A stretch of DNA of 64,000 nt, taken from contig JBITNC010000001.1 in assembly GCA_050084985.1 (NCBI GenBank), positions 203,732,001-203,796,000 of the forward strand. Reading direction: 5' to 3'. This document shows positions 24,833-59,399 of this stretch, piece by piece; the stretch's first letter is position 1, and each line of letters begins with the position of its first letter. The notes under the pieces are model-generated. The model made no database searches. It was given only the letters and a program-made list of their open reading frames with translations, and had not been told where the DNA came from. The translations under genes were made by a program, and so were the position numbers. This DNA is from Nageia nagi (taxonomy: Eukaryota > Plantae > Pinophyta).

Positions 24833-25686
24833 GGATTATCAAGCAAGGGAGGAAGCGACTTGGTCCGGATCTTTCCCAAGCAAGAGCACAAGGCAATAGT
24901 CAGTATGGTAAGTTGAATGTGAAGTGGTGTATGGATCAGATTCCGATTTATGGCAGATAAAGCCAATCAAATATCATAAAAGCAGAGTAATTCCAAAATA
25001 ACACAACTATATGCAGATTGCAGGAACGATCATTCATCCATTTAAGAAAGATATTCAACCATCTTTCCCTAAAGTGCCGAACTTTCAAAGGAAATGCTCA
25101 TAAATGTATAAATAATGCAACAACATGTATACTATGTCATTAACGTAACTTCAATCCCATAAAATAAACAATCAAACTTTCATTAATAACAAAGTCTCCC
25201 AAAAAGATTGATCATACATAAATGTAATGAAAACTTCAACTGCAAAAGTTACGCTTCAAAATATGCTACTGAAAGAATTGGCATTCAGCCCACAAAGCAA
25301 TTACAAAATTTCTATGCTCATGCATTTAACTATATGCGTATCTCTAATTGCATAACCATCTCCCCCAAAAATGAACCGGGGAGGGGTACTTATAGTACGC
25401 TACTAACAACCTCATTAAATGAAATGTTGCCCTAAAACAACTATGCAACCCTAATATTACATCGTAAAATGTGAAAACTATTGATAGAAAACAAAATTGC
25501 AGCCAAATAGCATCGCCAAAAGTCACATCAACCATATCCGCATCTGATCACACCCGATCAGATCGGATTCTATCTAAATGTCAAATCAAAAGTCTTTTAG
25601 CAACTGTGGGAGCAAAAGCTCATCCGTCATTGTGCGAAATTTAAAATATGTAAAATTTTAAGCAGAAAAATAGAATATGCATTTAT

Positions 25687-26182
25687 CTAATCATCCCTTT
25701 GTGGGATTGACAGAGTGAGCAGCAGCAAAGACGTTCTCGGGAATCCGTGAGACCGATCATCGAAGAATGCCTTGGCTTTGACTAGTCCTACAATAAATGC
25801 ACTCGGTAATTCTTCATGCTTTCTATTGTGGAAGTCGAGAATGAATTGAGAAGTGGTCTCCATCTGAAATTTCCAAATGGTCAAGTTTTGTTGATTCTCA
25901 ATGTGGGTCCCAACCCTCAGTAAATTCACATCCTTCGTGAAGATGAGCTTCTTGATAATGTTTTGAACTTGCATAACAAGCTCAACTTCCCTGGCGCTCC
26001 CATCTTCATTCATAAAACTGACAGGTTGCACGAATTGGTTCATTTGAAAAGCTAAGGCAGATATCAACTCGGCCCTTGCCTATGCAAGATTGGCATAATC
26101 TCTCGCAGCAAATCTCAACCAACACAAGTGATAGGCAAATTCTTGGCAATATTGTACCCGACCAGGTTGTCCTTCAGATGTT
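25687..26182 (-). pseudogene. Copy B ORF, C-terminal part
   Basis: IFTKDVNLLRVGTHI...LTIWK aligns by eye with ICSKDPHNLKTGKHM...LADWS of copy A. In frame with the middle part once 350 bp are removed. Confidence 0.72.
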
Positions 26183-26527
26183 TTCCAAGGTAATTACATG
26201 AACATATGATGATCTAAAAACTTATGACAAAGATATGATCCAACATACTATTGAACTCATGCTACATGTTGAGCCATACAGGTAGAAGCAAAGGCCAGTG
26301 AACCCAAGGATAGAGGAAGCAATGAAACAAGAGTTGCTTAAGCTCTTAAATGCTAAAATAATTTATCCTAATAAGCACTCTACATGGGTAGCTAATATGA
26401 TCCCAGTAAGAAAGAAAAATGGATAAATTAGACTCTGTGTTGATTTCTAAAATCTTAATCAAGCATCCCTAAAAGATAACAATCCTCTCCCTCCTATGGA
26501 ATAGATCTTGCAAACTATTACTGGTGC
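26183..26527 (+). mobile_element. Isolated Ty3/gypsy reverse-transcriptase N-terminal fragment
   Basis: Translates to TYDDLKTYDKDMIQHTIEL...KQRPVNP...STWVANMIPVRKKNG*IRLCVDF*NLNQASLKD..PLPPME. Flanked by ATGTT direct repeats (26178-26182, 26528-26532). Confidence 0.85.
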
Positions 26528-26532
26528 ATGTT

Positions 26533-27377
26533 ATGATATTTTGAATGGCCTGCTCATGATTTTGGAAATCTTGAAGTAATTGTGAAATGGCGGCCGTTGT
26601 GTTTTCCTCGATCTTTTGCTCGTCTATAAGGGCAACTAGCCGGAGTGAGAGCTCATTGACTACTCTTATCACTGCATTGACTAAGGTTTCTTTGGTGGAA
26701 GCAATACCAACATTTAGTGAGGTTTGGACTTTGATATCCTCAACAGTCATTTTGGCGGCCTCTATCTTTATCACTAGCTTATTCTTCCGAGCCAATTCCT
26801 TCTTCAATTCTTTGACTGTATTTTCCCTCTTGATTCCTTGTCTGACCATCTCACCCACATTGTCATTAATGGCATGTTTGCATCCAGCCCACCCGATCTT
26901 CTTCACTTTAAATTTTTTGGTGTAAACTTGCACGTATTCCAAATCTTACGGATGCTTTTTCTTAGAATAACACCTGTTGATGATCACCTTATCATTTTTC
27001 ATAGACACAAAAGTGTCTATCTCCTTGATCGGGGAATCCTCTGACATAACTTCCTCCCTTTGGCTGGACTCTTCATCATCACTCCTATCGCTTATCTGGA
27101 GATCTTTAATTACTCCATCAATGTTAAAGTTGTACTTCTTTTGCTGTGATGAACTAACTGCAATGTTGGCCAAAGTGGTGTTCGTGTTGGTTGGAATAGA
27201 TTCCCAGGGAATTTCTTCAATTCTTAATTGCTGGCTCTTTGTCTGAGCTGGTTTCTCCTTACTCTTTGGTGACTTGTGGCTGCCATGTTCCTGTTGCTTT
27301 CTCTTCTTCTTTTGTTCTTCACTTTCTCTCTTATCATCATCATCTCCTCCATCTCCAGCTGCAGAAGTTCTACTTAG
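26533..27377 (-). pseudogene. Copy B ORF, middle part
   Basis: Joins 43579 across TSD CTTTG (TPSTPSK|LSRTSAAGDGGDDDD). MTVEDIKVQTSLNVGI matches LTFEDIKKQVDLNIGI of copy A. Confidence 0.75.
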
Positions 27378-29948
27378 CTTTGTGTTGTGCCCGCACAACA
27401 CAACCCAAGATGCAGCATTTTGGGGACCCAATTTTTTTTCAAATGGAAATGAGCAACATTACCTGGGCATGACAACTTACGGTTCATATGGAGACCCAGA
27501 ACGGCCAAATGATCAAAGTAGCAGATGAGCATGCCCTGTAGTCATGGAAACAGTTCAGCTTAGCCAGTGGCCAAGCCAGGGCTCGGTCTTGAGCAGTGTC
27601 TCACAAGATGGAGTTGTGGATCACGACAACACCCAGACAGTGGAGTTTTGAGCGAATGGTTATCAGGGCAGAAAAGGCGTCGTTTTGGCAAGTTTGAGCA
27701 ACAAAGGTGCTAAGACGACAAAAGGTGCGTTTTTCGTCGAGTTTGAGCCCGAGAGCAGTGGATATAGTTAAGATGATGAAATTGTGCATTTTTGTACAAA
27801 TTGAGCCTAGAAAAGGGGAGCTATAGCCAAAAAGCGTGTTTTTGTCAATTTTGATCCCGGAGAGCCAGAAAATGAGCAACAGCACGGAAAAGCATGTTTT
27901 GGTCAATTTTAAGCCTGACAATGGCCACTATAGTGAAAATGTGCGTTTTTACACAGTTTGGGCCCGAAAAGCTCGAAAACGACCAAAAATGCAAGTTTGA
28001 GCTCAAAGTGCTAAGAAATGCTCGAAAAGGTCGAAAATGAGCATTTTTGCATATGTTGAGTCTGGAAAGGTCGAAAATGTAGATTTTGAGCTCTAAATGT
28101 TGGAAATGATCGTTGTTTTCATTGTTCAAACTCGGAAATGTTCGGAAAAGCCGGAAATGGTCAAAATTCATGCTTAGAGCTCGGAAATGCCGGAAATGGC
28201 TAGAAATGCACCATTTGGGCTCGGAAAAGACGGAGAAGGTCGGGAGTGTATAGTATAGCTCGGGATGAATGAGGAAAACAAGTTTGAGCACCCTTGTGGG
28301 CCAGGATCAATGAGTCTTTTGGCATTCGAAAAGCTTCGGTTTGAGTCCGAAAATTGAGTTTTTTCCAAAATATTCGGAATGAAAATCCGAGAGAGCTGTG
28401 GTGCCAAATGACAAATTAAGGCCACTCTACTCTTGGAAATTTCGAAAAAACTTGATTTTTGACCCTCGAAAAGTTAGGGGGGAGTTTTGCAAGTTTTCCC
28501 TTAGTAAATTTTGAAAAATGGCCTATTCTCTTCAAAACCTGCACCTACCTTTTGGGAGGCCTAGATTGATCCGAAATGGCAATTTTTGAGCTCAGGAGTG
28601 TGTGGATCACGATTCTACATCAAATTGTTCTTTCAAGTTCGCGATTTCGACGAGTTTTGCTCCACCAAAAGTGAGAAAAACAGGAAAATGAGCAAAAGGG
28701 CAGCCAATGAGAATGCTCCAAGATTTCCAAAATTCCCTAAAGTGTCAAAATGAAAATTTGAGAGTGAGGTAGGGTGGCAAATAAAAAATTATGCACTTTT
28801 CCTCTTGGAATTTTTGAAATTGGGCAAATTTTGACCCTCCTAGAGCTAGGCGCTGGTTTTGGGTGTTTTCCCTCATTTTTCAAAATCTTCAAAACACCCC
28901 AAACACCTCAAGACTTGTGCCTAGCCTTCTTGTGCCCCAAAAGTGAAAAAAATTGGAAATTTTGACCTTCAAGGGGCATAGGATGGGATTCCACACAAGA
29001 TTGATGATTTGAGTTTTTCAAAAAAATGAAATCTACCTCCTTAAATCATCAAATTTTGATTGACCAATGAGAGGGCTCCAAATTTTCTCAAAATTTTCCA
29101 AAATTGGTCAAATCAAAAAAGGAAAGTAAGGTAGGGTGCAAAATTCAAAGGAGATCAACATTGCCTCTTGCAATGTTGCAAAAAACTCAAGTTTACCCCC
29201 TCAAAAAGCTAGGCGGCAGTTTTGGCTTGTTTTTCTGATTTTCTAAATTTCCAAAAACATGCCAAAGCCCCTAAAACCTGCGCCTAGCTTCCAAGCCCTC
29301 ATTTTTGCTCAAAAATCAAAATTTTGATCCTAGGAGCATGGGAAATCCAATTTTGCATCTCTTTCATGTTTTAAGTTTTGGGAAAAAGGTTGATCTACTC
29401 CCTCAAAATCCCAAAATTTGGATCATCCAATGGGAGAGCTCCAAAATTTTCCAAAAATTTCAAAAATCCCAAAAACAAAATTGGAAAGAAAGGTAGGGTT
29501 CAAAATCCAAATGCAAGCATCTTTGCCTCGTGCAAATTTGCTCAAAAACTAATTTTTGCCCCCCTGAAAGGTAGGTGCTGATTTTGCAAGTTATCCCCCA
29601 TTTTTTCATTTTTCAAAACTTGCCTAAACATCCTAAAACCTGCGCATAGCCTCCTAAAAACCACCTTTTTGCATCCAAAAAAGATCTAAGGGCTGAGAAG
29701 ACTCAAAAAAATTGGATTTTCCTTCAAAAATATCAAAATTCAAAATCCAAATCTGAAGGATGGAGGTTGTAAAGCATTCCAAGGCCATCATCTTTGCTTC
29801 CAAGACCTCCCCCATTGCACCAAATCTGCTCCTTCCCCATCTAGGTGCAGGTTTTGACTTTTTTCCAAGTTTTCTTATGATTTCCAATGTTGGGTTTGAG
29901 AGAGAATAGTCCAAAGTGCAAGTGTTGAGCTCTAGGGTTGATGTGGAA

Positions 29949-29988
29949 GTGACATGTGGCACTTTTAACACCCCTAGGTCTATAAATA
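29949..29988 (+). promoter_or_regulatory. Candidate internal promoter for the copy A ORF (GTGACATGTGG plus TATAAATA)
   Basis: The same module recurs in copy C at 60551-60582. Confidence 0.5.
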
Positions 29989-30810
29989 TGACCATACCGC
30001 CTCCTTTTTACTCACCTCTCATTTTTGCACCAATTTTTGAGAATTTCAGAGCCAAGTGAGAAAAGAAGCCATTTTTCCAGCCTTGGAGGATTTTTCAAAC
30101 ACCTAGCATCTTGGCCGTTTACCCAAACTCCATTAAAATTCGAAATCCAAGCATCCTCCATCCACATGAACTCCATTTTTTCCAAGTTTTGAGGATTTTT
30201 TCACAAAAACCCTTTTTTCAAACCCTCAAACACTTGAAAATTTATTTTTTCAAATTTCAAGTTTGATCACTTTTTTGGATACCCTTTATCCATGTGATCA
30301 ACTTTTATTTTCAGCTAAAAAAATCACAACAAAATTCATAAGATCCAAAGATCTGAGTGATCAAAACCCTCATTTCTTGAAAAAAATAAAAAAAAATCCA
30401 AAAATTGTTTTTGAAGTCTGTTTTGACCATTTCAAAGTCTGAAACACCTTCCCCATTCATTCCCCATCCATCTAAGGTGTTAGAACTTGATTCCGGCACC
30501 ATTTGCCAAATTTCACCACTTTTTCCTGTTGAAAAAGTCAACTTTTTTTGAGAAAAACTTGAAAATTCTCCAATCATCCTAATTTTTTGCCAAGGCATTC
30601 CCCTTTGAGGCAGCTACCTTTGTGTCATCTTAAACTCACCCAGAAGGCTTTGAAAATTGCAAACCTTGACATTTTTCGATGATGGCACACTTAGAGAAAA
30701 AAATGCCCAAAATCCCAATTTTTTGAAAAATTCTCTTAGCTTGCTTAGAAAGCGCCACAAGCTTCCCAAGACTCCTCTAACACTATGTTGTTCTCTTAGA
30801 CAGGAACAAG

Positions 30811-31662
30811 ATGGCGTTAGTTGCTCAGAATATCAAAGACACGAAGTAGAAAAGGCTCACGATGGACAGTCCCATCACTCTTGAACATACGTCAGAGCTC
30901 TTGATGCCCACCGCAAGAATCATTGACCGAGTGAGATCGAAGATCCATATTGTAACTCCCTCGATCCAATTAAAACTCTAATGAAAATACATACATTGGA
31001 TTCAACTTTGATAGTGAAGGACACCTTGAAAACTTCCTTACTACTATCAGCTTCTATGGTGCCATTTGTCACCCCCTTCCCTAAGCTGTGCTACGAGCTA
31101 GGAAAGCATTGCGACATCCGAGAGCGGAGACTCCTCCATAGAAGAAATGAGGTAATCATGGAGTTCTCTGATGAGAGAATAGAAAGGGCATTCGCTTGGA
31201 AGGGTGAAGGCCTATCATACAACGTGCAAGACTCCTTGAAGTTTTACAAGGGTCTGAAACCTCCAGCTGATTTGATCAAAGATTGGTTGGCCAATTACTG
31301 CAAGCATCTCACAGGGAGAGCCTTAGCAACGCCAAACAGAGCAGAGTTCTATCCAGTAGTCTCCAGACTAATATCCATGCTTTCCAGAGTGATCGGACGG
31401 AAAGATGACACCAAATACCAGTCGGAATTTGTGAGGTTCATAGAGCTAATAAGTAGCGGTAAAGGTGTTAAGTGGAGTAGAGTAATTAGTGATTCTTTGG
31501 CTTAGCAACTGAAACACATTCAGAAGAGCAAGAAATTCTATATGAACTCCTACCTAGTTTTCCTACTCCTTCATGTTAGGGAGAGGGTAACTTCAATTGC
31601 CAATACCCAATATCTGTACAACCTTACACATCCAGTGTGGGAAAATTACCCTCAGTTCTATG
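30811..31662 (+). pseudogene. Copy A ORF, part 1 (unknown protein)
   Basis: ATG at 30811 after an acceptor-like TTCTCTTAGACAG. MVPFVTPFPKLCY...LISMLSRVIG..DDTKY..EF...FYMNSYLVFLL; in-frame stops. Confidence 0.78.
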
Positions 31663-32449
31663 TGTTTACAAATAAAAGTGTATTCGAGAATGCAAATAAC
31701 TGAAATATCTACAGTCCTGAAAGATACATATATCTATTTGTAAATTCTGAGCTAACGGATAGCAATTTATAACAAGACAAGCTGATATGGAAGATAACGA
31801 ATAACTGGAATTGAAATGACATTACCAAACAAGATTGAATTTGTGTACTTACCTCACGGAGTGTACCTGATATGGATAAACAGAAGATATTGATGAAGCC
31901 TCAATAGTGAATGGAGTCTGCACCGAAGTCGTGAAGCAAGATGATCCAAAAAAAAGGTCGCAGGTGATCTATTTCATGCTCGAAAGGAGCATCATCGGTC
32001 TGCTTTCGTCTACAGGGAGCACCAACGGTCTTCGTTAGATTGTAGTCCGTTTTGAACTGACTCTGTGCCTCCACACGAACTCTCAATGGTCTCAATTTGA
32101 TACTCAGATAAGCTTAGAATTGTTAGGATGCTCGCATAAGGAAGTACACAAACCCAGCCTTGAATGACGGTGTCAAGAGACACCTAAAGGACTGCCATCA
32201 TCAAGACCAGATATGGGATCATGTATCTCCTTGATGTGAACTTACTATTGGATCCCTATTTATATAGATAATAATATGACCTACTCTTTAGGTCGGCGTG
32301 TACCTACATAAACAAGAATATAGTAAGTCGATGATATATATTGATCATATCCAAAATATCATAAATATTCTTGAACTAGACATATAAGTGCGGGCACATA
32401 GTTCCTAATGTATTAAATTAAATTCATAAATTAATTTTATGCGATAACA
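31663..32449 (-). repeat. 3' LTR of the Tat-type element (787 bp)
   Basis: TGTTTACA...ATAACA; direct repeat of 39261-40009; adjacent polypurine tract. Confidence 0.93.
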
Positions 32450-32462
32450 GATGCCCCACTTT
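32450..32462 (-). promoter_or_regulatory. Polypurine tract of the Tat-type element
   Basis: Minus strand AAAGTGGGGCATC directly precedes the 3' LTR. Confidence 0.8.
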
Positions 32463-32859
32463 GGATGAGAAATTGAAAATCGCTAGACGCATTGAGATTT
32501 TTCATTCAAAGTATAACCAAGATGTCATAGCAATCAAATATTGGTAAGTATAGACAAGCATAATACCAACACTAATCAATCTGTTTTGATACTGAACTAT
32601 GATAAAGATATAAGAAAGATGAGCAACATATTGACAAAAGGTATGAGTTTACGAAAACCCTCTCATATGATATCCACTATGTTGCCCCTAGTTGATGTTT
32701 GATGTGCTCCATGAGCTCCAATGATGACCTGCAAAAGAAAGAGTTCTAGGGTCCATAGCCATCTACCAAGAGGTCACTGATGACAATTACCCATATTTTG
32801 GATATATTTTGATATGTGGAATACAACCATCTCACGTCATTGATGATTCTGCCCATTGA

Positions 32860-33110
32860 TCTTGTGGAAGCTGAACTTCCTACCAAGAGGCATAATGATA
32901 AAACTAGCAGCTGAAACTCCGCCAAGAGGCATATCGCAATAAGGAGTGGAGCTGGAACTCCCTCAAGAGGCATGATATGATGATGAGAGTTGAAACTCTG
33001 CACCAAGAGGCAGGAAACTAGGATGATGATATGAGAGCTGAAACTTTGCGCCAAGAGGCATGCAAATTTTATGATCTAGGAGCTGAAACTCTGCACCAAG
33101 GGGTATCTGA
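32860..33110. repeat. Tandem repeat (~40-45 bp, about 6 copies) in the 3' UTR of the Tat-type element
   Basis: Recurring GCTGAAACTC.GC.CCAAGAGGCA. Confidence 0.8.
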
Positions 33111-33309
33111 TGATCTTTGTTTTTGCTGTTTCTGACTATACAATAGGACCGTAGGTGGTGCTTTTCTGCTAAAATAGAGCGTTGACATCCTCTTATGATA
33201 TTGAAATGACTTTCTGTTTTTGGATTTTTGTGCCGTTTGTTCCATGCTTATTCCTATAGTAACATATTTACGGAAACAGACGCACGGGACGACCCACAAG
33301 TTGCTTAAA

Positions 33310-36300
33310 TGTGATACTTTTTTAAGTGCCTAGCATTAATGGGATTTTTGAAAACCTCCCCATCCAATCTAGACAATTTGTATGCACCTCTGCCAAAGAC
33401 CTCTGTGATGATGTATGGGCAACCCAATTTGGTTCAAACTTTCCTTTAAGTTCATCTTTTCCTATAGTGTTAGAAACATTCTCTTGGAGAACCATATCTC
33501 CAACCCCAAATGCTTTGGGCACCATTTTCTTTCCATAGGCCCTCTTTATTCTTTGCTGCTATGTTTAGAGATGCTCTAGTGCATTACTTGTTTTCTCATC
33601 TAATGCCTCTAGTTGATTTAATCTTGCTTCCCATTGTTGTGGCCTCTTCATGATATCTTTGAGTGCAATTCTCAAAGAAGGGATCTCAATTTCAAGTGAA
33701 ATGACTGCTTTATCACCATACACAAGAGAGTATGGAGTAGCACCTGTTGCTGTTCTTTCGGTTGTTCTATATGCCCATAAGGCATATGGTAACTGATCAT
33801 GTCAATCTCTACTATTTTTTTTTGATAGTTTTTGCCCATATCTTCTTGATTGTTTTATTTGTTGCTTCAGCTTGTCCATTCCCTTGGGGATAGTAAACTG
33901 AAGAAAATCTCTGTTCAACCTTCATCTTTTTACAAAATTCTCTGATATCTTTTTCTGTAAAATTCGCACCATTATCCATGATCAGCTTCTGAGGTATGCC
34001 AAATTTACAAATGATATATTCCTTGATGAAATTGATAACATGTTTTTGTATAGCTGTCTTTAAAGGAATTGCCTCAACCCATTTAGTGTAGTATTCGGTG
34101 GCAACCAAGATAAATTTGTGCCCCTCACTAGATGGAGGATTGATAACACCCATCAAATCCAAAGCCCACATTGAGAAAGGCCATGGTGATGTGACATAGT
34201 TCAACTCTTGAGCAGGTGTTAATTCTAAGTGTGCATGCTTTTGACATTGCTCACACTTCTTGACATGTTCATAACAATCATGTTCCATAATGGGCCACCA
34301 ATAACCCGTCCTAACCAACTTGCCATAGACTGATCTTCCATTGAAATGACCTCCACATGCTCCTCCATGAGCATGCTTTGATGCTGTTTCAATCTCCTCA
34401 TCATGAAGACATCTCAAAAGAATACCATTAAATGATCTTTTATAAAGTATATCACCAATGATAACATACTTCGTAGCAAGCCTTTTTATTCTAATCCGTT
34501 CTCTCTTATTAAGTGTACCATCAATGAAGTTATCCCTCAAATATCTGAATATGTGTTGGTACCAAGGACTTACCTCATAACCAACCTTTTGAGCCACATA
34601 TACCATTTTCAAGTCCTCCTCAGCAATTGATAGAGTTCCCGAGTTCTTGATAGTGAAAGTAATCTCCCTACTTTCTATCTCAATTGGTATAAGTGAAGTT
34701 GCGTTTGCCATTGCATCAGCCAACTTGTTATTGTTTCTTGGAATATTTTCTAATTGATACTCTTCAAAGCAAGCAAGGAGTTTTGTAACAAGAATTTTAT
34801 ATGGAATAAGCTTTTCATCCTTGGTGTTATAGATCTTACTGACTTGATTCACTATCAGCTGTGAATCCCCATAAATATGCAAATGTGTAATACCAATCTC
34901 TATAGCTGCTTTTAATTCTAATATGAGAGCTTCATATTCTGCCATATTGTTAGTGCATTCAAATGATAGTTTGTATGACATGGGAATAACATCATTTTGA
35001 GGCGATATCAACGCTATTCTTGCTCCTGAACCTTGCATACACTGTGATCCGTCAAAATACATTTTCCAGCGTTCTGACACCTTTGAAAAAGGAACGTTGA
35101 CGTTCCTGTTTTCTTCAAAGGAAGGTCGTGGGCGGTTCTCTTCTACACGTTCTGTGGTTTTTGCCAAAGCACATTCATCCTGAAATTCTTCTCTGAGTTT
35201 TGTACTGTCTTCCGTGGGAAACTCTGCAACAAAATTTGCGATTGCCTGCCCTTTAATTGATTTTTGTTTCACAAACTTGAGGTCAAACTCTTGAAGTAGC
35301 ATTATCTATTTTGCTGACCTTCCATTGAGGCATGGTTTTGACATCAGATATCTTAATGGGTCTGCCTGAGTAAGTACATGTGTTGTGCTATTGATCATAT
35401 AATGCCTCAACCTCTCAGTAGCAAATACTATACATTGACATAACTTCTCAATGGGTGTGTATCTGGTTTCATATTCTTTCAATGTTCTGCTAATAAAATA
35501 GACTACTCTCTCTTTACCAACTTTTTCTTTCTTTGCCAACATTATCCCAAATGCATTTCTGTAGCTGAGACATAGGGCCAAAGAGGTTCTCCATGCCTAT
35601 ATAGAGCTAATAGCGGTGGATGTAGCAAATACTCTTTTATTCTATCAAATGCTTCTTGACATTTAACATCCCATTTAAATTCAACTTCTTTCTTAAGTAA
35701 ATGAGACATAGGAGCTATCTTATCTGTTAACTGACAAATAAATCTTCTTACAACTTGAATTTTACCTTGAAGGCTTCTCAATTGCTTAAGATTTGTAGGA
35801 GGAGATATTTCTGTGATGGCTTTAATTTTCTTTTGATCCACTTCAACTCCTCTCCTAAAGACAATATGCTCTAAGAGTTTTCCTAATGATACCCCAAATA
35901 CACATTTTTGAGGCTTGATTCTTAACTTGTACTTCTTCATTCTTTCAAATGTTGCTTTTATATCCTTGATGTGATCTTCTTTATTCTTTGACTTTATCAA
36001 GATATCATCTACATAAACCTCTACTGTTTTACGAATGAAGTCATGAAACATGGTTGTCATTGCTCTTTGATATGTGGCCCTTGCATTCTTAAGACCAAAT
36101 GGCATTACCTTGTAGCAAAAGTTGGCCCAAGGAGTTCTTAAGGTTGTTTTATGCTGATCACTTTCCTTGATTTTGATTTGATTATATCCTGAAAATCCAT
36201 CCATAAATGATAACATCTCATAACTTGCCAAACTGTCAATGATCATATCTATGTTGGGTAGTTTGAAGTCATCTTTCGGACATGCTTTATTAAGATCTCT

Positions 36301-37800
36301 GAAATTAGTACATACTCTAATTTCACCTGTAGGTTTCTTTACTAGAACTACGTTGGCCATCCACTCTGAATAATCAATGGGTCTAATAAAACCAGCTTCT
36401 AATAGTTTCTCTATTTCTTTCTTGACTAGTAAAGAAATCTGAAAAGGTATCTTCTTTGGTTTTTGCTTTATAGGAACTGCTTTTTTCTCAACTACCAAGT
36501 TATGTACTACAAAATTTTCATCTAATCCAGGCATATCTTTATATGACCATGCAAATAATTCAGAATAATCATGAAAGGATTGAATCAATTCATTTTGCAA
36601 AGGTTCCTCAAGGAGCTTACCCGTTTTTAGGAATTGCGGTGTCTCTTGAGAACCAATGTTGACCTCCTCTATCTCTTCATTCAACTAAGTCATTTCTGAT
36701 TCTGATGGTGGGAAATGGCTATTCTCCTAACCCTTTGATTTTATCCTCCATAGATTCACCAAAGCAAGTATGCACATCTAGACAATGTTTGTGAGTCCTC
36801 TTTTCATGCCTAGTTGGATATTCAGTTCAAGCACCCATAGATTCTAAGAAAGCATCATCATTCTCAAACAAATCTATAGCATGTATTGCATCTTCATCAT
36901 CTATTTCACATTCAATAACAAAGCAATTTTGATCATCTCTTTCCCGTTCATCTTCTTGCATTAATAACGAACGACTAACCTGACCATTGTGATCATCTCC
37001 ACAATATGGGACAATGCAATATTTGTTTTCCTCTGTGATTTCTTCTAAAGAAGACCGTCGATGGTCTTTATGGAGCCCAAAGGAGCGCGAGCGGTCCTTT
37101 TCCTGAGCCTCCTACCGTTTGTCCAAATCTCTCTCGAGACTGATATTATTGACATCTGTGATAGTGTACGAACCAAATCCGATATCTTTGACATTGATTT
37201 TTGGTAATGCTTTTCTGTAAATTTGATCATTCTTAGCTAGTATAGCCTCATCTTCCGCATCATACAGAACAAATCTCTCAGGGAGAACATAATTGCATTG
37301 CTTGGCTATCTGCTCATTTGCTTCTACCTTGTAAACATTTCCTTCAGAACAAAATTTGAAACATCTATGCAAAGTGGATGCTAGTCCCTCCATGTCATCT
37401 GTCCATGGTCTTCCAAGAATAAAATTAAAAGAAGGTTTTCCATCTGTAATGTAGAAGAGAGTTTGAAGCACCTTGTTTCCCACTTTGATTGGAAGTGTGA
37501 TGATTCCTGCACATTTCTTTGGAACACCATCAAACCCCTTAACTCTCATGGTAGTCTCTTCTTTTGGAGGTAACAAATCTGGATCAAACTGTGAAAGCGA
37601 ATGGTGGTAATACTCAAAGCTTCCCAACCATCTATCAATGATCTTTTAACTGTATTACCAAAGATATTCACTTCAATAAAAAATGGTGGATGTAATTGGG
37701 TTACATCCTTACTAGGTCTTTCACTAGGGTGAAAAGTGATAACATCCCCTTTACTTCATATTTTTGCCTTTTTTGCAAAAGCAGTGATTGAGATGTTCTT
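33310..37800 (-). pseudogene. pol: pol (protease, RT, RNase H, archaeal-type RNase H, integrase), degenerate
   Basis: FILGRPW (protease); MDGFSGYNQI, VMPFGLKNA, VYVDDIL (RT); MYFDGS...NNMAEYEAL...GDSQLIV (aRH); H-G..GGH...C..CQ, WALDL, YYPQGNGQAEA and GKFEPNW (integrase). Confidence 0.93.
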
Positions 37801-39167
37801 GTCTATCTAATTATTTTTGAAAATCTGATTCATCATTTCTCTATGAGGTTCTGAAATTTGAAGTACTTCAAGCAAACTAACCTTTGCTTTTGTGTTTTTG
37901 AGTTGCTCAATGAGGTCAAAACTTCTTGGATCTTTAGGAAGCTCTTTTTCACATGTGACAGGATTTGTTGCTACTCTTGATCTTCCTCTTGTAAGTGCTG
38001 CACATACTTCTTCATGGAAAATTACATTGACATGCTGCTTTTCTTTTATATCTTTAACTTTAGTAGGGCAAACGTAGAATCCATCCTTTATAAGCCTTTG
38101 TATTTTGTTTCTTAGGCCTCCACACCCAATAGTGGCATGCCTCTTGATTTGATGATATTCGCAATATCTGTCTTTTTTGTACCATGTTGGCCTCTCTGCT
38201 GATTCATTTTCCTCTCTTAGGTAAAGGCTGTAATAATCCCTTTGCCATTAGATCTTTCAAGATAAACCTGGGAGGTATAGGAGACTTTATGAATTTCGTT
38301 TCTTTCTTTTCATTTGCCTTTTCTACCACGCGAATGGATTTATCTTTCTTTGGTGATTGTAGCTGCTTATCTTTGGCCCTAGGTTTGTCATTTTCTCGAT
38401 ACTTCACAAGCTCTAATTTCATATGGACTTTTTTTTTCCAATAGCTTATATGTCATATCAGAAAATGCTAGATGTGTATAATCAATGCAATAAGATTGTA
38501 AGGACAATATGACAGCATCCTTGAAAATATTGTTTACCTCTTTTTCAGTAAGTTTTGTTTTGATTTGTTGCCATGTCTTCTTGAATCGTACAACAAATTT
38601 TTCAAGATTCTTATTACTGCCTTGCCTCATAACACATAGATCCGAAACTATGACTTCATGTTTGATATTGTGTTTATACTGTTTTAGAAATAAGTTGCTC
38701 AATTCTCGAAATGATGTAACTGACCTTTTAGGTAGAGAATAGAACCATTCATAAGCCTCTCCTTCCAAACTATGAGGAAAGAACTTTGTCGGTAATCTTG
38801 AATCGACATTGATTTTGAGGTCACACTCATCTTTAAACTCTTGCAAATGTCTCCTAGGATCTCCTTCCCTACTGAACTTACAAAACTTGGGATCTTTATA
38901 ATTCGGTGGTGGCATGCATACATGGATCTCATCACATAGAGGACTACCAAACTCAATTGAATTATTTGGCTGAACTGATCCTTTTGCTAATTGATTAATC
39001 TATCTTTGCATACTCTCAATAGTAGCCTGAATGTTATCATTGTTACTTCCATCATCGTGTTCGGCTTCTTGGTTAGGTACTTTTGGTCCATCACGCTGAA
39101 TATCTCTCAAGAGCTCATCAAGATCTCTTCTCGAAAGACTTCTCAAGAATACTCTTAACTGATCCAT
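37800..39167 (-). pseudogene. gag: gag, degenerate
   Basis: PPNYKDPKFCKF..EGDP..HL..F, KFFPHSLEGEAYEWFYSLP, and a CEYHQIKRHATIGC zinc knuckle near 38120-38165; frameshifts. Confidence 0.85.
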
Positions 39168-39237
39168 GTTTAAAACAACTCACAAAATTGTTTATTAGTC
39201 CTAACTAAAACCCTAGGGTTTTAGCACAACTACTTAT

Positions 39238-39257
39238 GATTCACATCGGGTTCACCA
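39238..39257 (-). promoter_or_regulatory. Primer-binding site complementary to tRNA-Trp
   Basis: Plus strand GATTCACATCGGGTTCACCA matches the plant tRNA-Trp 3' end as I recall it (GATTCACGTCGGGTTCACCA) with one mismatch; 3 nt from the LTR. Confidence 0.82.
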
Positions 39258-39260
39258 AAA

Positions 39261-40009
39261 TGTTTACAATTAAAAATGTATTCAAGAATGCAAATAACTG
39301 AAATATCTACAGTTCCGAAAGATACATATATCTATTTGTAAATTATGAGCTAACTGATAGCAATTTATAACAAGACAAGCTAATATAGAAGATAACGAAT
39401 AACTGAAATTGAAATGACATTACCAAACAAGACTGAATTTGTGTACTTACCTCATGGAGCGTACCTGATATGGATAAACGAAAGATACTGACGAAGCCTC
39501 AACAACGAACAGAGTCTGCATCCGAAGTCGTGAAGCAAGATGATCCAAAAAGAGGGCTGCGGGTGGTCTATTTCATGCTCGGAAGGAGCGTTGGCAGTCT
39601 GCTTTTGTCTACAGGGAGCGTCGGTGGTCTTCGTTAGATTGTAGTCCTTTCTGAACCGACTCTGTGCCTCCACACGAACTCTCAATGGTCTCAATTTGAT
39701 ACTCAAATAAGCTTAGAATTGTCAAGACACTTGCATAAGGAAGTACACAAACGTAGCCTTGAATGGTGGTGTCAAGAGACACCTAAAGGACTGCCATCAT
39801 CAAGACCAGATATGGGATCATATATCTCCTTAATGTGGACTTACTATTAGATCTCGGCATGTACCTACATAAACAAGATATAGTATGTTGATGATATATA
39901 TTGATCATATCCAAAATATCATAAATATTCTTGAACTAGACATATAAGTGTGGGCACATATTTCGTAATGTATTAAATTAAATGCATAAATTAATTTTAT
40001 GCAATAACA
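39261..40009 (-). repeat. 5' LTR of the Tat-type element (749 bp)
   Basis: About 90% identical to 31663-32449 (about 23 mismatches in the first ~260 bp by hand count), with a ~38-bp deletion. Confidence 0.93.
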
Positions 40010-40014
40010 CTATG

Positions 40015-42339
40015 CTTATAATAAATGGAATACTGGAAATTGGACGATGATGACTGATGGTTTTGAAGGCAAAATTTACGAAGAGATTCTGGGCAGAGCC
40101 AACGTATTTAGAATATCCAAAGAGGCTGCTGCCGCTATCAAGGGACATGTGGAATTCTATGCAGAAGACATAGAGTTCACCTACCTCAAGGTCTATGGCT
40201 CCATAAAAGCCCCTTATAGGCTACCCAGTTATGCAAGTAATCGTATCATCCTTATGGAATTTTCAAGACACTTTCTAAATATATACGACAAGGTATGGGT
40301 AAAGAAGGCGGCAACCACTTACCAATTACCTATTGTCATCGGGAATTATGAATGCACCACCTAGCGACAAATTGAAATGATCAAACAAGAACTGGTGTTG
40401 TATGAATTCCCGACAGAAGTAGCTACGGATCACTATGATCCCGATGGAGTGATTGATGCATTCTTCCAAAAGACTTGGAGGTCATCATATCCACACCAGT
40501 CCCTTGGTAGCATCGAGAGGTATAGGAACATTCAGGACACCCTACAGGTTCAATAAGAACAAAAACAACATGAAGTCGAAGAAGTTGCTAGGTTAAGAGC
40601 TAATGCATGGGTCATCGTTCCCCCGAGCCACGGGTATGTTATTCCCATAATATCCCCTTCAGTAACCCTGGCTCAAGGACAGAACGGGCAGTATGCTACC
40701 AATAGCATCACTGAACAAACCATTGAAACAACTGTCAAGGGTACGAAGAATGAAATCCTGGAACTCAGAAGAGCAAGCCTGATCTCTCAACCATTCAAGC
40801 AATTGCAGAAAAAGATAAATCTCCTACAAAGTTTGAATCGGAGTGGTATGCACCTGAATCAAAACCCAACACATCATCATCCAGTTCCGATAAATATGGA
40901 CTAAGTGACTCGTCAGAGACCGATGAAGAGATGGATTTTGCTGCAGTCATCAACACCGACATGGAGATAAACCAAGATACTGCCTTTGAGTGGGTCAACA
41001 TTGATCATTCAGTAGAGGTCCTTAGTGAAGGCAATCTCTCAGTCGATATGATTGTCCAACAAGCAGCAGGAGAAGTACCCCAAAATCCGCTCCTCAGAAA
41101 CAGGCATCGCAAATGCCACCATCTCGGACGACCACAACAACATCAGCTCAGAAGGGTACTTCAAGACCTAGGACAATGGCATCATCTTTAGGGGGAGATG
41201 ATGAAAATCAGGGGAATGAGGGAGAAAATGAAGAATAGAGGGGAAAAAGAAGACAAGTAGAGCATGATGTCGAGATCATCGAAGACGGAGAGATGATTCC
41301 CTACGGAAAACAACCTATGGAACCTCGCTTCGACATGGCTGCAGTGATGTCCAATTTGAGTTCAAATCATCCTTACGAAGGAGAAGATTCTGAAGATGAA
41401 AATGAGGAACTTCAGCAGATTGATACTCTTATCACCACTGTAGGAAAAGTCACCGATTAGACAAGCTCTACTCAAGGAAAAACAAGGCTAGTTCTGGAAA
41501 GTTTGGCCTCACTGTCGAGATAGAAGAGGCCCCTGCAGAGATTGTTGGCCCATTGGGAATGGAGCACAACATCATCAAGAATGCACGGGCATTGAGGGAA
41601 TCTGGTATATTATTGAAGTTAAAGAACTGGGAGCTGAAGAAGATAGTGGCAAGGTTGGAAATGATCGACAAAGAAGTCAGGGCTACTAATTTGACATTTG
41701 AAGACATCAAAAAGCAGGTTGACTTAAATATTGGAATCACCGCCCTGAAACAAGGATAGACCAAGAACCTTATTGAGGCCATCAAAGCACTCCCCTCAAG
41801 CATGGTAAATTTTTATATTGAGGAGGGGGGTCGCATTCTCAAGCGGAGAAAATAGACTAGTTGATCATCAGATGGACGAATGGGTACCCGACAATGCTAG
41901 ACCTACGGAGAAGGGCAACCCATCATCCTTTCATGCAGTATTTTTGCATAGATTAGTTCCCATATACACCAGAACCCAACTCAAAGCTATCATCAGTAAA
42001 CAGGCAAGGGAATACGAATTCTAGGTACCCTTGTTTGAGGAAAACGGTAGCATTAAGGAGTATATGACAGTGATGACAATGATCCACGCCACTATTGCAG
42101 AGTAGATATGTTCCAAGGATCCACACAACTTGAAAACAGGAAAACATATGATAGGAGGGATGAGATTGGCTGATTGGAGCAAGGAAATGGTCAAAACCAA
42201 TAAGGCCATCTTGGAGCACCTGCTATCAAAGGAAGGAGCTCTCCAGACAATCCATCGTGCCATCAGGAACGTAGAAGCGTTCATGGGAGATAACTTTGAA
42301 GCCAAAATCGCCACAAACATGCAAGTCATCTTCCCATGA
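40015..42339 (+). pseudogene. Copy A ORF, part 2
   Basis: Continues in frame across TSD CTATG (YPQFY|AYNKWNTGNWTMMTDGFEGKIYEEILG). Acidic low-complexity middle and coiled-coil-like C-terminus; stops and frameshifts. Confidence 0.78.
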
Positions 42340-42538
42340 TCGCCAGAATAGAAAGGGGTCTATTCTGGTAAGTTTTTGATACGGAAGCTAAATATTTGGC
42401 CAACTTAGTGGATTTCCACTAAGTCCAATTGTAATCTCTATTTAGCATTTTTTATTAGCTTTTAATCTCGCAATTAAGGTTAGGGTTTTGAAACTCATTT
42501 CTAGGGTTTCAAAGGTCACTTTTAGGGTTTCAAAACTC

Positions 42539-42546
42539 TATAAGTA
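42539..42546 (+). promoter_or_regulatory. Candidate LTR TATA box (TATAAGTA) of copy A
   Basis: About 1 kb before the 3' terminus. CTATAAGTA...TCATTTTT is also present in copy B at 25387-25394 (minus). Confidence 0.5.
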
Positions 42547-43578
42547 AGAGACCAAGGGTCTCATTTTTGTAAGGACTTCATTCTGAAGAAAAACACTTCA
42601 AGCTTGAAGAGAGAACTTTTGTAAGAGAGTAGCAAATTGATGTATCCTTGCACAACTCTTTTTCAAATTAATACAAAGTGGTTAATGCAAAGACTTGAGT
42701 TTGACACTTTTCATATTGATGTTATGGATTGATTCTTCGGGGGCACTTTTAGTGGGCTTGTGTACTTTTGTTTTATTCCTTTGAAAACTCTCTAGCTTTA
42801 GGGAAGTTATCTTTGAAAAACTTTAAAAGTTCTTAAAGCCTACCTACGTTTGTTGCTTGATCCTTAACATGCAAGTTGATTGGGTATTCTATGTTAGTTT
42901 CTACTTCTATGACATCTTGTTAGGTCCTTCATCCAAAACCATAATCCTTTCACTTTGAAACATCCCGTTTCCGCCCATTTGACGTTCCTCCCTGCTCCTC
43001 TTTGAAGCATTTTGAACATGAGGTTGTTTGCTTGCAAGGTTGGATGAATTGGATGAAAAGTCCTTGATTGATTCGGAAGAGATAAACTCTTAGACACTCT
43101 CCCGTCAGTGAACCTCAAACCCATATCCGAGCAAGTATCTTTTCTTTCTCCATGGTGTTGTCCTTCACCTTTTACAGTATTGCCTTTACGCTTTTTTTTT
43201 TATGCTTTCATACCGAAATATAATCCTTAAGTCCACACACAAAAGTTTTGAACAAACTCTATACATCAAAAAATAAAACATTGTTGGTTAACAAACTACA
43301 TACCTCTCATTCCATTGCATTGAGGCTGATTCCAAAGAGGGATACCACCACCTTTTATTTATCTATCCCTATTCAGAAAACACACCTGGCAGACATACCT
43401 TACAACATCACAACGTTGGGGTCACTAGGCAGGGTGTTTCAACAAGAGCCTTGGAGGTACACAGTCCTTTTCAACCGAGGGAATTGGTAATGCACTCCCA
43501 ACTATGTTGCTTAGGATCTCCTAAATTCTACATGCAATATTCAGAGTGTCCTGTACGGGAAAGAAAAGTATCCCAACA

Positions 43579-45700
43579 CTTTGAAGGTGTGCTAGGAGTT
43601 GTTTGAGAAGCTCCTTTCTTTGGGGATGATCTTCTTTTCCTTTGTGGAGTGGCAAATTTAGAAGAAGCAACTTGCTTCACTGTTGTGGATGTGGAAGGCA
43701 AGACCTCATCAACTTCTTCTGTATTAGAATCTCCTTCGATATCTATGATTTGAGTGTTATGTGAGTTAGATTGAGAATCTTCACCATCTTCATGCTCTTC
43801 TTCGGTCTCTCCTTCTTAACTTGATTCATGTGAATTAGATGATTCAAAGGATGTCTTAGAATCAGAAGATGAACTTGAGGAGTCAGGATCCTCAGGTGGG
43901 TTTGCAATGGGAGCATTTTCTTGAATTTGAGCCTCAATAGGCTTTGGAAATGTATCTGGTGCATGTTCTTCTGCAGGTGTCAATAAGTTGGGGAGGACTA
44001 GAGGATTCTCAGCTCGGATAGACATGATAGACACCATAGGAACATCCTTTGGGATAGCATCTTCAAGCTGTTGGAGAGGGAAATTTGGATACCCTTTTTC
44101 CTTCATGATAGCAACATCTTTGGTAATCTCCCTAACTACGATGTGGATTCCAGGCTTAACCCCACCCAGAGTGGTGTGCTCTCCTATCCTTCCCTGGTGT
44201 CTTCTCACTCTTGAAGAGTAGGTGGATTTTTCAGCAGAGATAGTACGAGGGTCATTTAGGTTCTGGATTCTCCTATCAATTTACCCTTCGACTATTAGGA
44301 TTTGATGAATCTCCTGGATCTGCTTCTCCTCCCTCGTATTTTTGTATTTTTTCTTGTTCCCAAGAGGTCAATGCTCATAGATCACAAGATTCCAAAATGC
44401 TCGTTTGTAAAAACACTAAATTCTTCCTTCAGGGTCATAGTGGGAGGCTGCCTCCTCCTCACTGAAGTGGTAGTAAGATAATTCTCTGCCTATCTCTTTA
44501 GCCTCTTGCCAAGTTGAGCAAGTGTAATCCTTGATTGAAATAGGGAGATTAGTTGTAGCATTTTTCTTCTTCCATACAGTTTCATATAAAAATAGCAGCT
44601 ATCTGTAGAATTCCATAAGGATGAGGCGGTTACTGGCATATCAAGGCAAGAGGTAGGGCCTAACTTTAGAGCGATAGACCTGGATGTAAGTATGTGTGGG
44701 GTCTTCTAGAAAGTAGTTAGCATGCCCTCGGATGGCCTCAACGGTTGAATCAGAGATCCTTTTCACCATTTTCCTCCCCTTAATTTCTTTATAAATTTGG
44801 AACTCCCATCCATCGTTCCTCATGGCGTAGTAGTCCCATCTTGACTCTACATCCACTTGGGGTAAGCTCTCCATACAGGCTTCTCTGGATTGTTCAAGAT
44901 CTCAATGTTTGCGTGGGTTGACTTCCTATTTTTGCCAGGGAGGAGAAGGAAAACTAGGTAGGAATTTATATAAAACTTTCTTGAAGAACCAATGTGAGCC
45001 AGTTGGAACAAGAGGGAGTCGCTTATTATGCTACTCTACCTTATTTTCTGCCGGTTTCCAATTACGGCAATGAATCCAGTAAACTCTCTCCAGGACTTTA
45101 AGTCATCTTCTTTTCTAGTGATTCTAGATAACATACTAATGATCATGGATACCGTGAGGTAAAAGTGTTGCCTCTTTGCATTTAACAACTTGTTTCTTGT
45201 GAATCCTTTGCTTTCCACTTCAAGCCAGTTTGTGATAAGACTTGCAACTTGTGGAGACTTCTCATAATATTCTAATGAATCTCTCTTAGTATAAATGACC
45301 CCTTCATTGCTCCACTTAAAGGCTTCTTCGATCCTAAAGGAGAGAAATCTAAGATTTTATTTTCATCAGTGTCATAGAGGGCTCGATCCTTGAAGTTGGC
45401 ATGCCTACCCACTTTTTAGCAAAGCTTTGGAAAAGGAATTACAAAAAGAATTAATGTGGCAGTCGCCAATCCATAAGTACACACTACTTCTCTAAGGATT
45501 TGGAATTTGTCTAATTCCCCAATAGCTTGAAGTGTCCGAAGTGGGTCGGTGTGAGACTAGTTGGTATCCCAGATAGTGGTAAAATTATTTTTGAACTTGG
45601 CTGGTTTCAATGGATCTTGAGGATTTTCTTTCATGAATTCTATATGACTTTTTTTGGTCAATCTGGCCAATTGCAGCTCTCTAGATTTGCCTAGCTTAGA
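43579..45700 (-). pseudogene. Copy B ORF, N-terminal part (unknown protein)
   Basis: IISMLSRITRKEDDLK..REF, FYINSYLVFLL, IYKEIKG...RISD and TYIQVY.S...PYLLP match copies A and C; contains stops and frameshifts. Confidence 0.75.
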
Positions 45701-46069
45701 ATTGATCTTCGTTTTCTTTAAACTGTAAGCAGACTGAATTAGTAGCAACTGACTCTGATAGATGAGGGGTGCAATGCAAGGAGGGTGTAATGCCTGACAG
45801 GCTTGTATGCCTTTATATAAAAGTAAGGTGACCAACTTTCTACATACAACGTTGCCTAGAACCTAATTTTAATGCATGAATGATGACAAGGTGGCCGACT
45901 AGTGGTTTCTGTTTTGAAATGCAAATGAATTCAAATCTTTAACATATGAGATGACCACAAAACGGTAACAAAGTGCATGGGCCCACTTCTAGGACAGAAA
46001 TGAACATTCACTAAAATGATTTAAATGCAAAAAAGGGTGGTTGCATCCATTCTCAATGATGGACGTTTA

Positions 46070-47400
46070 TCTCCTAGGGACCATGCGACCATGTTATGGA
46101 ATGAGTTGATGCAATACAAACGATGCAATGGACCATGAAATGCAAACAATAATGCAATAAGGAGGTGGTCGCATGGTTTGGGAATGATGGGAGTGTAACT
46201 TCTTGAAATTGTGCGACAAGCACTATGAGACACTAACTTGGACTAAATCACCCTCCTTTCTCTTTAATAGCTGCTTAGGATTGCCAGATGGCAACATTTC
46301 AAGGAGGAAAGGCAAGTGTTTCGACTCATGTCGTTTATAATGCATGACCAAGGTGGTCGCAAGCTTTCCAGAAGATGAAACTTTAACTATTCAAAATCAT
46401 GCGAACATACTTATTTGTTTTGGAGATGCAAAAAGGTGGTCGGCCCTTCCTTAAAAGATGCAAAGGTAACTAAATGGAACCCTGCGACCATTGAGAATGG
46501 ATGATGAACATGCTAGACTTAGCCCCAAGATGCAGGAATGATGCTAAGGTGACCATATGGAACCATGTGACCATTAAGAATGGCGTAGAAGTCCAAAAAA
46601 AGGGGTGGTCGCATGCTTTCAATAAGATGCAATGATGACCTTTATGTATTGTGCGACTAGTTTTGAGGCCAAGGCTGACTTTGTGAAAGTTGGACATGAC
46701 AAGGTTATATAGTTCCCTTCTTGACAGGTGTCCATGTTGAGTTGGTCAGAGTGGAGGCCGAATGATTTCAAGACAAGCCATTTGCATGCTTGCTTAACGT
46801 CTGGAAGAGGTGGTCGCATGCTTGGGGAAAGATGGAACTTCAACCTTTTGAAACCATGCGAACACTTCTAACAAGCCTTTTTCCCAACACTTAGTCAATT
46901 CTTGAACTTATAGCTTTGAAAGGAGGGTGGTCGCATGGTTTTAGGAAGATGAAAATGCTACTTTCAAGAACCATGCGAACACCTTTGAAGCTGCAATATG
47001 AATGTGTTAAGTGAACTAGACGGCCTTCCTTTATATACTGACTTCCTTGCCAAGTGCCCTCGTCCATTTGGTTGAAGTGAAGGCCGAATGTGATCAAGGC
47101 AAATGCAATGTGCTAGTAATGGTGGTCGGGAGGCCACAAAAAGATGAGTTTGCAACTAACTTGAATCGTGCAAACGCCCTTGGGAAGAGAATTTCCGTTA
47201 CTTAACCCAATTTTATGCTTCCTGGTTTCTCAAGAGAGGTGGTCGCATAACTTTGCAACTACTAGAAACCATGCGAACACCCTCAAAATGGAGAATTTGA
47301 GGACTTAACAACTTTTTGAATGCTGAAACTTGCTTGAGGAGGTGGTTGTGCTATTCCATGAAAATGTATCTTTCCTTCGACATGTGACCAACCTTGAACT
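46070..47400. repeat. Array of imperfect palindromes GGTGGTCGCATGGTT...AACCATGCGAACACC
   Basis: Units near 46165, 46350, 46605, 46810, 46925 and 47240. Confidence 0.8.
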
Positions 47401-47618
47401 TAACCACTTTCGGATTTCACACTTGTTCCCATGCATGAATTTCCCCGAAAATGCTTGTTTTTCTTAAGTAAGCTTCTCATCTGATTTTAAAGTTGCACTT
47501 TGGGCTATTCTGAACAATTTTCTTCAATTCTTGCTCAAAAAATGCTGTTTGAAGTTGAGGGTCCCCTTATCCTTTTGCAAAAAAAGGAGGACGGGTGTGT
47601 TGAGGCGTCAACACACTC

Positions 47619-55473: not shown

Positions 55474-56091
55474 CAAAAAGCAAGATCAATGGACAATATT
55501 TTCAAGCAAGAAGATACTACAACATGGGTTACAACTACAACACTAAAGGAGGAGTTGGCAAAGAAGAAGAAAAAAAAGACTTAGAAGAGGACCATATTAT
55601 GAAATCTTATGCTTTTAAGGATTCATCAAATTCCTTTGGCAATGAACATTTGAATGGTACATCATCTCTTACATCTTGTATTTCTTGAAAAGATAATACA
55701 AATACTTTTGAGGACTTATTTCAATGTGGTTGCATAGGATCTCATATTGAGAATAAAAAGGTAATACTAGTGTTGGGAAGGGATGTGTTGATGAGGTTTC
55801 TATTGAGGTTCATTCTTCTTGCCATCTACACACTTAATCATTTAATCATGATACTTTTGTTAGAAAATATCAAGCAAGGTAGCTGAAGTAACATGAGATA
55901 TTTTATGTTGAAACCCCTGCTATGTGCAAGGAAAAACCATGGAGCAAGGGTGGCTTCGATTCTTGCATTAACTTGAAAGTTCTCTTTACACTTTCTCACT
56001 TTTTCAACTACAAGGGGTCATTTCCTCTTTATAGAAAACAAAGTAGGCTATATAAAGATAACACCTATTAATAGCATGTCTATTTATAACA

Positions 56092-59242: not shown

Positions 59243-59399
59243 TGTTGTGCTTACACAACACCCCCCAAATTTTTTGCATTTTGAGGACCCTCGAAATTAA
59301 AATTAGGAAATGCATGGAAGTAATATGTCAAAAGGACATGCATATGTATTGGTCTAACTTTAGGAAACATGTTTAAATTGCTCTTTTGTGGTCAAGTTA

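Follow-up and report, generated by a model that had tools for sequence, protein, structure and literature searches.

The window analysed in this study is a 64,000-nt stretch of the conifer Nageia nagi (assembly GCA_050084985.1, contig JBITNC010000001.1, positions 203,732,001 to 203,796,000, forward strand), and it holds a retroelement unit of 7,844 bp that is interrupted by a nested Tat-type Gypsy element. This unit is probably a giant solo long terminal repeat (LTR) with a gene, here called the accessory gene, in its U3 region. The unit has integrase-type ends with a 5-bp target-site duplication (TSD), it occurs in many copies, its gene carries the mark of purifying selection and the same layout is seen in diverged subfamilies. 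A wider proposal can be built on this anatomy, namely that an old and widespread gymnosperm lineage moved a VANC-like protein and its co-evolving target repeats into LTRs of 7-8 kb, so that a full element would hold two copies and each solo LTR would be a self-contained, trans-acting anti-silencing cassette. Taken as a whole, this proposal is speculative and in our judgment rather unlikely. Elements of this kind would be missed by standard LTR finders because of the caps placed on LTR length.

The initial annotation placed the ends of the unit at TGTTG (27383) and CAACA (43578) with CTTTG on either side, and both positions held, as did the length of 7,844 bp after excision of the nested element. 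The unit interrupts the homologous gene of a related element, the host element, on the opposite strand, and when one TSD copy is counted the host frame, 234 codons long with a single stop, runs on in an open frame across the junction. Contigs were compared among four runs, two of which represent one sample. Empty-site contigs in three of the four jump from 27382 to 43602, the right landing lying 18 nt past the expected point. Contigs cover 30 of 30 bins of the unit in all four runs, and the summed depth is several hundred over the unit versus 22-192 in the right flank, a value that is not a copy number. Two other copies, at loci L001 (88% identity) and L002 (83%), stop at the same CCCAACA and differ in the DNA around them, the L002 right end continuing into unrelated DNA; the right end is thus shared by both of the other copies that reach that far, the copy at L003 being too short. 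Because the host frame resumes, empty-site contigs exist and two other copies stop at the same base, the unit ends are real. They are true integrase-type insertion ends.

The unit displays the properties of a solo LTR, with TG...CA ends and a TSD in the 4-6-bp range at a true empty site, neither gag-pol nor an inner pair of direct repeats once the nested element is set aside, and multiple copies with fixed ends. Short paired LTRs within the unit, which the initial annotation had reported as absent and had proposed to look for by dot plot, were ruled out because the 5' and 3' parts match each other no better than shuffles do (the direct score is 24 and the inverted one 25, where shuffles average 24.4 and 25.3). 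A search of Rfam gave 0 matches in 27300-43400. The nested element itself is lacking from contigs in two of the four runs and from the L001 and L002 copies. Its two LTRs are 86.7% alike (Kimura two-parameter distance 0.094, 748 columns), and it has Pfam matches to gag, reverse transcriptase (RT), RNase H and integrase. The primer site, near 39240-39258, presumably resembles tRNA-Trp. A second RNase H sits between RT/RNase H and integrase (33815-36684, minus strand), an order ascribed to the angiosperm Ogre and Retand clades and not to the gymnosperm TatII/TatIII (PMC6317226).

The case for a single module that reaches from one end to the other comes from related elements. The twin hairpin at the left end of the unit recurs in four others, namely the host element, a further two of the window and one that is inserted in the L002 gene, and each of those four left ends adjoins unrelated DNA. 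Folding z values range from -2.8 to -4.9 in 5 of 5 ends, and the left-end pattern has 2 matches in the window and 0 in 100 shuffles; covariation in the first hairpin was not shown among the five sequences. Three matches of the pattern in prokaryote genomes had no further similarity and were taken as chance. At the right, the putative U3-R-U5 layout of the unit, drawn from motifs, includes the TATA-like motif at 42539, in agreement with the TATA annotated initially at about 1 kb from the 3' end. A reversed orientation of the unit was considered as well, but the purine tract and the R-like segment would favour the plus strand.

A gene-less relative, which occupies positions 1-1687 of L002 on the reverse strand, has a unit-type left end, short repeats and post-gene, R-like and U5-like sequence within 1,687 bp. 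Compared with the post-gene tail of the host element it scores 73 (shuffle maximum 44). Its R-like segment scores 50 versus a shuffle maximum of 47 (0 of 200 shuffles), and its 25-nt U5-like match scores 31 and 33 (1 and 2 of 200); the remaining comparison gave 44 versus a shuffle maximum of 34. The gene-less relative joins the left end to the tail, and therefore the two ends are parts of a single module, of which there is a long and a short form. A distant subfamily with proteins of 1,012 aa provides a further line of evidence. Four of its 15 listed members (of 28) sit on records of equal size, 24,039 bp; two of them are N-halves with 99.7% identity (291 aa) and two are C-halves with 98.6% identity (278 aa), and within each pair the halves resemble one another more than they do any of the 11 other listed members, whose best values are 97.9% and 98.4%. 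It is likely that one 24-kb record carries two near-identical gene copies, as paired long LTRs predict. Tandem or nested gene copies are a possible alternative.

When the nested element is left out, the accessory gene spans 3,177 nt or 1,059 codons, as the initial annotation had it. The frame that it described as a long open reading frame (ORF) is not open, the longest stop-free stretch in this copy being 192 aa. Ten stops lie in the L002 frames (two beside gaps and uncertain) and one more at 30847, giving 11; the frame changes near 30925, and 7 frame-changing indels, which are not polarised, were counted relative to L002. The relatives of the gene stop four codons beyond 42339. The ratio of nonsynonymous to synonymous substitution rates (dN/dS) between the unit and L002 is 0.28 (bootstrap 95% 0.22-0.35; 974 codons) and ranges from 0.20 to 0.41 across five segments, on the side of 1 that the annotation had anticipated. 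Between L001 and L002 it is 0.37 (174 codons) and 0.14 (197 codons), with the second N-terminal part and the linker excluded on account of the internal deletion of about 575 bp in the L001 gene. On these codon comparisons the accessory gene was once functional and evolved under purifying selection. The suggestion that every solo LTR would leave a complete gene behind is sound as anatomy, but every copy of this subfamily examined has a broken gene. Intact genes were found in the distant subfamily, whose 1,012-aa members share 92-95% mutual identity and match the family profile with an E of 1e-32.

The window has two further homologues of the gene, with 37% and 44% identity in the N-terminal domain. 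Among 1.84 billion cluster representatives, a profile search picked out 122 at E<=0.001. Among the 30 clusters examined, three are named hypothetical proteins of Taxus chinensis and the others are unnamed or "hypothetical protein". The Taxus chinensis names together with occurrences in air metagenomes point to conifers, and by sequence similarity the accessory gene appears to belong to a large unannotated gymnosperm protein family. Pfam gave nothing above the cut-off for the gene pieces or their relatives, a search for longer proteins containing the 192-aa piece found no homologue among 570 candidates, and scans of viral contigs and of prokaryote genomes revealed no relative and no protein relative, respectively.

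The function of the product was approached through predicted structures. The model of a relative, P0032 (mean predicted local distance difference test, pLDDT, 76.8), has as its top match VANC21 bound to DNA (9LNK) with a Z of 8.5 over 230 aligned residues, the root-mean-square deviation (rmsd) being 4.4; the next row has a Z of 4.8 over 70. The model of the unit's own domain (pLDDT 85.4) also has VANC21 first, with a Z of 6.1, 212 of 245 residues and an rmsd of 4.7, followed by a row with a Z of 3.2 over 60. The comparison covered 48,161 chains, and the two models share much of their alignment. VANC is described as sharing its fold with the plant mobile domain (PMD) of MAIN/MAIL1 (PMC13547354; bioRxiv 10.1101/2024.09.27.615353), and the PMD-A clades as Gypsy-encoded (PMC5418596). 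Because VANC and PMD share a fold and PMD-A is Gypsy-encoded, a remote PMD/VANC-type domain in a retroelement is plausible. The targets of VANC are tandem repeats that vary between related elements (PMC5735166). In the lineage studied here the array motifs vary by subfamily, TGCGAC occurring at 5.2 and 6.6 per kb in two relatives, 0 in the unit and 0.09 in the background. The product is predicted to be a DNA-binding protein of VANC/PMD-like type, which would attach to the repeats of its own element and counter silencing. Given the fold, an anti-silencing role is possible, at slightly less than an even chance.

Several results speak against this assignment of the product. The VANC21 match is middling, with 6-9% identity and an rmsd above 4. 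Foldseek against PDB and BFVD returned nothing at E<=0.001, and the accessory gene matches no Pfam family; PMD or Transposase_28 matches were found neither in the unit's gene nor in its relatives. DUF1985/VANC21 was absent from the Pfam rows for the window pieces and from the matches listed (25 of 40 families) for 111 members. The sequence profile searched against PDB gave no match to 9LNK at E<=10 and one chance-level row overall.

The reading of the unit as one giant LTR has to be weighed against evidence of its own. A full element was not seen among the unit and the relatives examined. A purine tract precedes 0 of 5 left ends and a primer site follows 0 of 3 right ends; pol linked to the lineage was found in none of the four window elements or the three loci (L001-L003), and the gene does end at a purine tract. 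In spruce there is about one solo LTR per 4-5.6 complete elements, unrelated to LTR length (PMC5751070). At that solo rate the finding that 0 of 6 ends, the unit's own two omitted, adjoin an internal region has a chance of about 0.03, an estimate softened by copy age and by the bias of short contigs towards unique flanks. That the 24,039-bp members share a record is deduced from equal size alone, and their subfamily is 23% identical. The invariant inner purine tract, at 18 nt the longest invariant run in a 375-column alignment, marks off an LTR-like module of an ordinary 1.2 kb, and the depth rises 2-3 times over the final 600 bp of the unit, where the identity among three copies is no higher. 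One may ask whether the true LTR is 42363-43578 only and the unit is the 3' half of an element, made up of repeats, accessory gene, purine tract and LTR, that integrated alone, with the twin hairpin serving as the second integrase end of a non-autonomous, one-LTR element. The tract lies at the gene's stop and is followed in L002 by TGTTGG, which matches the CCAACA end, and a similar tract with TGTTG is present in the gene-less relative; the raised tail depth, the fact that 0 of 8 ends adjoin an internal region and the conservation of the twin hairpin agree with such a product. However, TG after the tract is absent in three of the four copies, the depth in the first half of the module is up only 1.1-1.6 times, and the 24-kb record with its likely two copies agrees with paired long LTRs. 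Under the established chemistry of reverse transcription, integrated DNA begins on its left with U3, and we know of no route that routinely gives a one-LTR product, both of which count against it. Such a unit would be stranger still than a giant solo LTR, and we consider it unlikely, although it is the main rival. A solo LTR with a gene in U3, as the initial annotation proposed, is the reading with the best support, which now includes the shared left end, the gene-less relative and the likely two-copy record.

The end signature alone proves little, because 332 position pairs in the window combine 5-bp TG..CA inverted ends with a 5-bp direct flank. The unit could on that account be a one-off remnant of an ordinary Ogre/Retand-style element with an internal accessory ORF, from which the 5' LTR and gag-pol have gone, the TSD and the TGTTG start having arisen by chance; it is common for plant elements to have accessory ORFs and tandem repeats in the stretch from pol to the 3' LTR (PMC11963269, PMC7264820). 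This is hardly credible in view of the host gene coming back into frame at the exact junction, the empty-site contigs starting at 27382 and the same left end in four diverged elements. A further candidate is a DNA transposon, non-autonomous and with TGTTG/CAACA as its very short ends, that would resemble VANDAL elements in having a VANC-like gene and repeat arrays; the predicted VANC-like fold, the arrays and the fact that only stand-alone copies were seen would suit it. Mutator elements, however, make a duplication of 9-11 bp. The 5-bp TSD and the lack of a transposase in the unit do not fit a Mutator-like origin, and the LTR-like TATA, the R/U5-like tail and the purine tract likewise argue against a DNA transposon, which we regard as very improbable. 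A different kind of alternative accepts the giant-LTR anatomy and gives the protein another job, which may be integration targeting, chromatin tethering or, by way of its coiled coil, a structural role in an env-like or particle component. The resemblance in fold is distant and sharing a fold does not demonstrate a function, the matched domain leaves about 700 further codons unaccounted for, and the host MAIN/MAIL proteins of the same fold act otherwise (PMC13547354; 10.1101/2024.09.27.615353). Against these points stands the location of the gene beside arrays whose motifs change with the subfamily, a pattern reported for VANC systems. Another job for the protein is a serious possibility, though one we would not favour.

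Returning to the giant LTR, a route for its origin can be proposed. In the ancestor the gene would have been located between pol and the purine tract, ahead of a 1.2-kb LTR. A shift of plus-strand priming to a site upstream of the repeats would have extended U3 over the cassette of tandem repeats, promoter and ~1,050-codon gene, and the cassette would thereby be copied into both LTRs. The inner tract may be the ancestral priming site, kept as a helper primer or as a relic. Recombination between the two long LTRs would then have left the solo copy, followed by the Tat insertion and decay. The features of the unit and of its relatives in the window are listed in Table 1. Absent from the initial annotation were the inner purine tract with the LTR-like 1.2-kb module behind it, the second TATA, which precedes the gene, the 362-bp tandem array and the location of the unit within a homologous gene.

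Table 1. Positions of the unit, its parts, the nested element and related elements in the window
Feature	Position	Strand	Remarks
Whole unit	27383..43578	+	7,844 bp without nested element; probable giant solo LTR
Left TSD copy	27378..27382	+	CTTTG, from sequence; host frame resumes with one copy counted
Right TSD copy	43579..43583	+	CTTTG, from sequence
Left end, twin hairpin	27383..27424	+	TGTTGTG-n4-CACAACA, then CCC..GGG stem; common to four related elements
Degenerate tandem array	28378..29680	+	Period ~362 bp; repeated TGC(G/A)CCTAG-type motif; candidate binding sites
Upstream TATA-like motif	29981..29988	+	Putative gene promoter, from sequence
Accessory gene part 1 (broken)	30811..31662	+	N-terminal domain 30927-31661, predicted VANC/PMD-like
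Nested Tat-type Gypsy element	31663..40009	-	LTRs 31663-32449 and 39261-40009; TSD CTATG 31658-31662 and 40010-40014
Accessory gene part 2 (broken)	40015..42339	+	Remaining folded region, acidic linker, coiled-coil-like segment, C-terminal domain
Inner purine tract (polypurine-tract-like)	42345..42362	+	Identical in 4/4 copies
LTR-like module of ordinary size	42363..43578	+	1,216 bp; R/U5-like tail ends CCCAACA
TAGGGTTT repeats within LTR-like module	42481-42538	+	
TATA-like motif within LTR-like module	42539-42546	+	
Host element, downstream half	24920..27382	-	Remaining homologous gene (to ~25700), truncated tail
Host element, upstream half	43579..47617	-	Same-type left end 47560-47617, own repeat array, TATA-like motif, homologous gene start
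Fourth related element, left 1.2 kb	56088..57320	+	Cut by another retrotransposon
Third related element	59243..64000	+	Same left end, repeat array, homologous gene from ~61205; leaves window

Members of the lineage cluster and nest. Four are present in the window, the unit lies in the gene of the host element and another member lies in that of L002, both in opposite orientation, and the nesting of members in each other may reflect a target preference. The L001 copy (3063-4000) is intronic and sits close to the 3' end of a gene that, like plant sulfite oxidase, has a Mo-co oxidoreductase dimerisation domain. The host gene also contains, in antisense at ~26200-26550 (plus strand), a 350-bp Gypsy-type RT fragment without LTRs and without a Pfam match at E<=0.01. 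Where the tail of the host element is truncated there is a fragment at 24400-24920 (minus strand), again with no Pfam match at E<=0.01, which we take to resemble the C-terminus of a hAT transposase. The left end of the host element cuts a Copia element at 47620-48700 (minus strand), recognised from a gag start (DUF4219) and a tRNA-Met-type primer site near 48680; the remainder of this Copia was not found at the other end of the host element. Elsewhere in the window, related LTRs of another family with 30-bp repeats occur in both orientations at 14236-15626, 52130-53350, 54315-55420 and 58575-59240, and a CCGGA-rich, LTR-like stretch with tandem units of ~120 bp is found at 3540-4900. A putative RNA methyltransferase exon was identified at 18705-18887 on the plus strand (PF02598, E 3.5e-11), and this gene may have a very long intron that holds the transposon cluster.

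If the anatomy is true, the unit is longer than the longest plant LTR in the literature examined, 6.5 kb (PMC6431247), and contains a full gene in U3, and the accessory gene would come through the formation of solo LTRs, the usual way in which a host disarms such elements, unharmed. If the function is true, sequence-specific anti-silencing, shown so far for VANDAL DNA transposons, would extend to conifer LTR retrotransposons, giving a testable handle on how elements persist in giga-genomes and adding to the PMD/VANC fold a new branch that has intact members. Published descriptions place the extra ORFs of plant retrotransposons in the internal region, on the upstream or the downstream side of gag-pol (PMC7264820, PMC11963269, PMC6317226). 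Our literature search, which did not extend to Repbase, the REXdb supplements or the VANC21 structure paper, found no report of a plant LTR that holds a gene in this manner, and PMC11539532 and PMC12859917 had nothing specific to contribute. The REXdb reference survey capped LTR length at 6,000 bp (PMC6317226) and a recent gymnosperm survey at 3,000 bp (PMC13477047), and the layout of the unit would therefore be filtered out of both.

Among the known systems, Ogre/Retand elements of the Tat clade (PMD PF10536, Transposase_28 PF04195) resemble the unit in their large accessory ORF with its own promoter, the tandem arrays beside it, the 5-bp TSD and their long LTRs, which measure 1.9-6.5 kb in Ogre (PMC6431247) and up to ~5 kb in REXdb. 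Their ORFs are internal in the texts available, mostly between pol and the 3' LTR and often antisense, whereas the gene of the unit lies between two integrase-type ends, is sense to the TATA-like motif of the tail and has no Pfam match. VANC, the anti-silencing protein of the VANDAL Mutator-like elements (DUF1985; PDB 9LNK), is the top structural match over the whole N-terminal domain for both models, and its gene, too, stands beside family-specific tandem motifs. The unit differs from VANC systems in its retroelement-type ends, in the 6-9% identity without a profile match to 9LNK or DUF1985, the likeness being known from the predicted fold, and in its gymnosperm host, VANC being described as dicot-specific (PMC13547354). 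The Gypsy-encoded PMD-A clades and the host MAIN/MAIL1 belong to the same fold superfamily, and PMD-A is borne by retrotransposons, for which an anti-silencing use of the domain has been speculated (PMC5418596). Unlike the unit, PMD-A is described from angiosperms and is detected by Pfam, and no placement in an LTR is described in the available part of that source (PMC5418596). The unit resembles an Ogre/Retand accessory cassette or a VANC system, but fails the sequence tests for either. Genes in the retroviral U3, such as sag of mouse mammary tumour virus and the overlapping nef of human immunodeficiency virus, are copied into both LTRs, and a protein gene inside U3 is what the unit would have in common with them. 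The gene of the unit is about three times longer than sag, and the unit departs from the retroviral cases in the TATA-like motif upstream of its gene and the repeat array in its U3, and in being a plant element.

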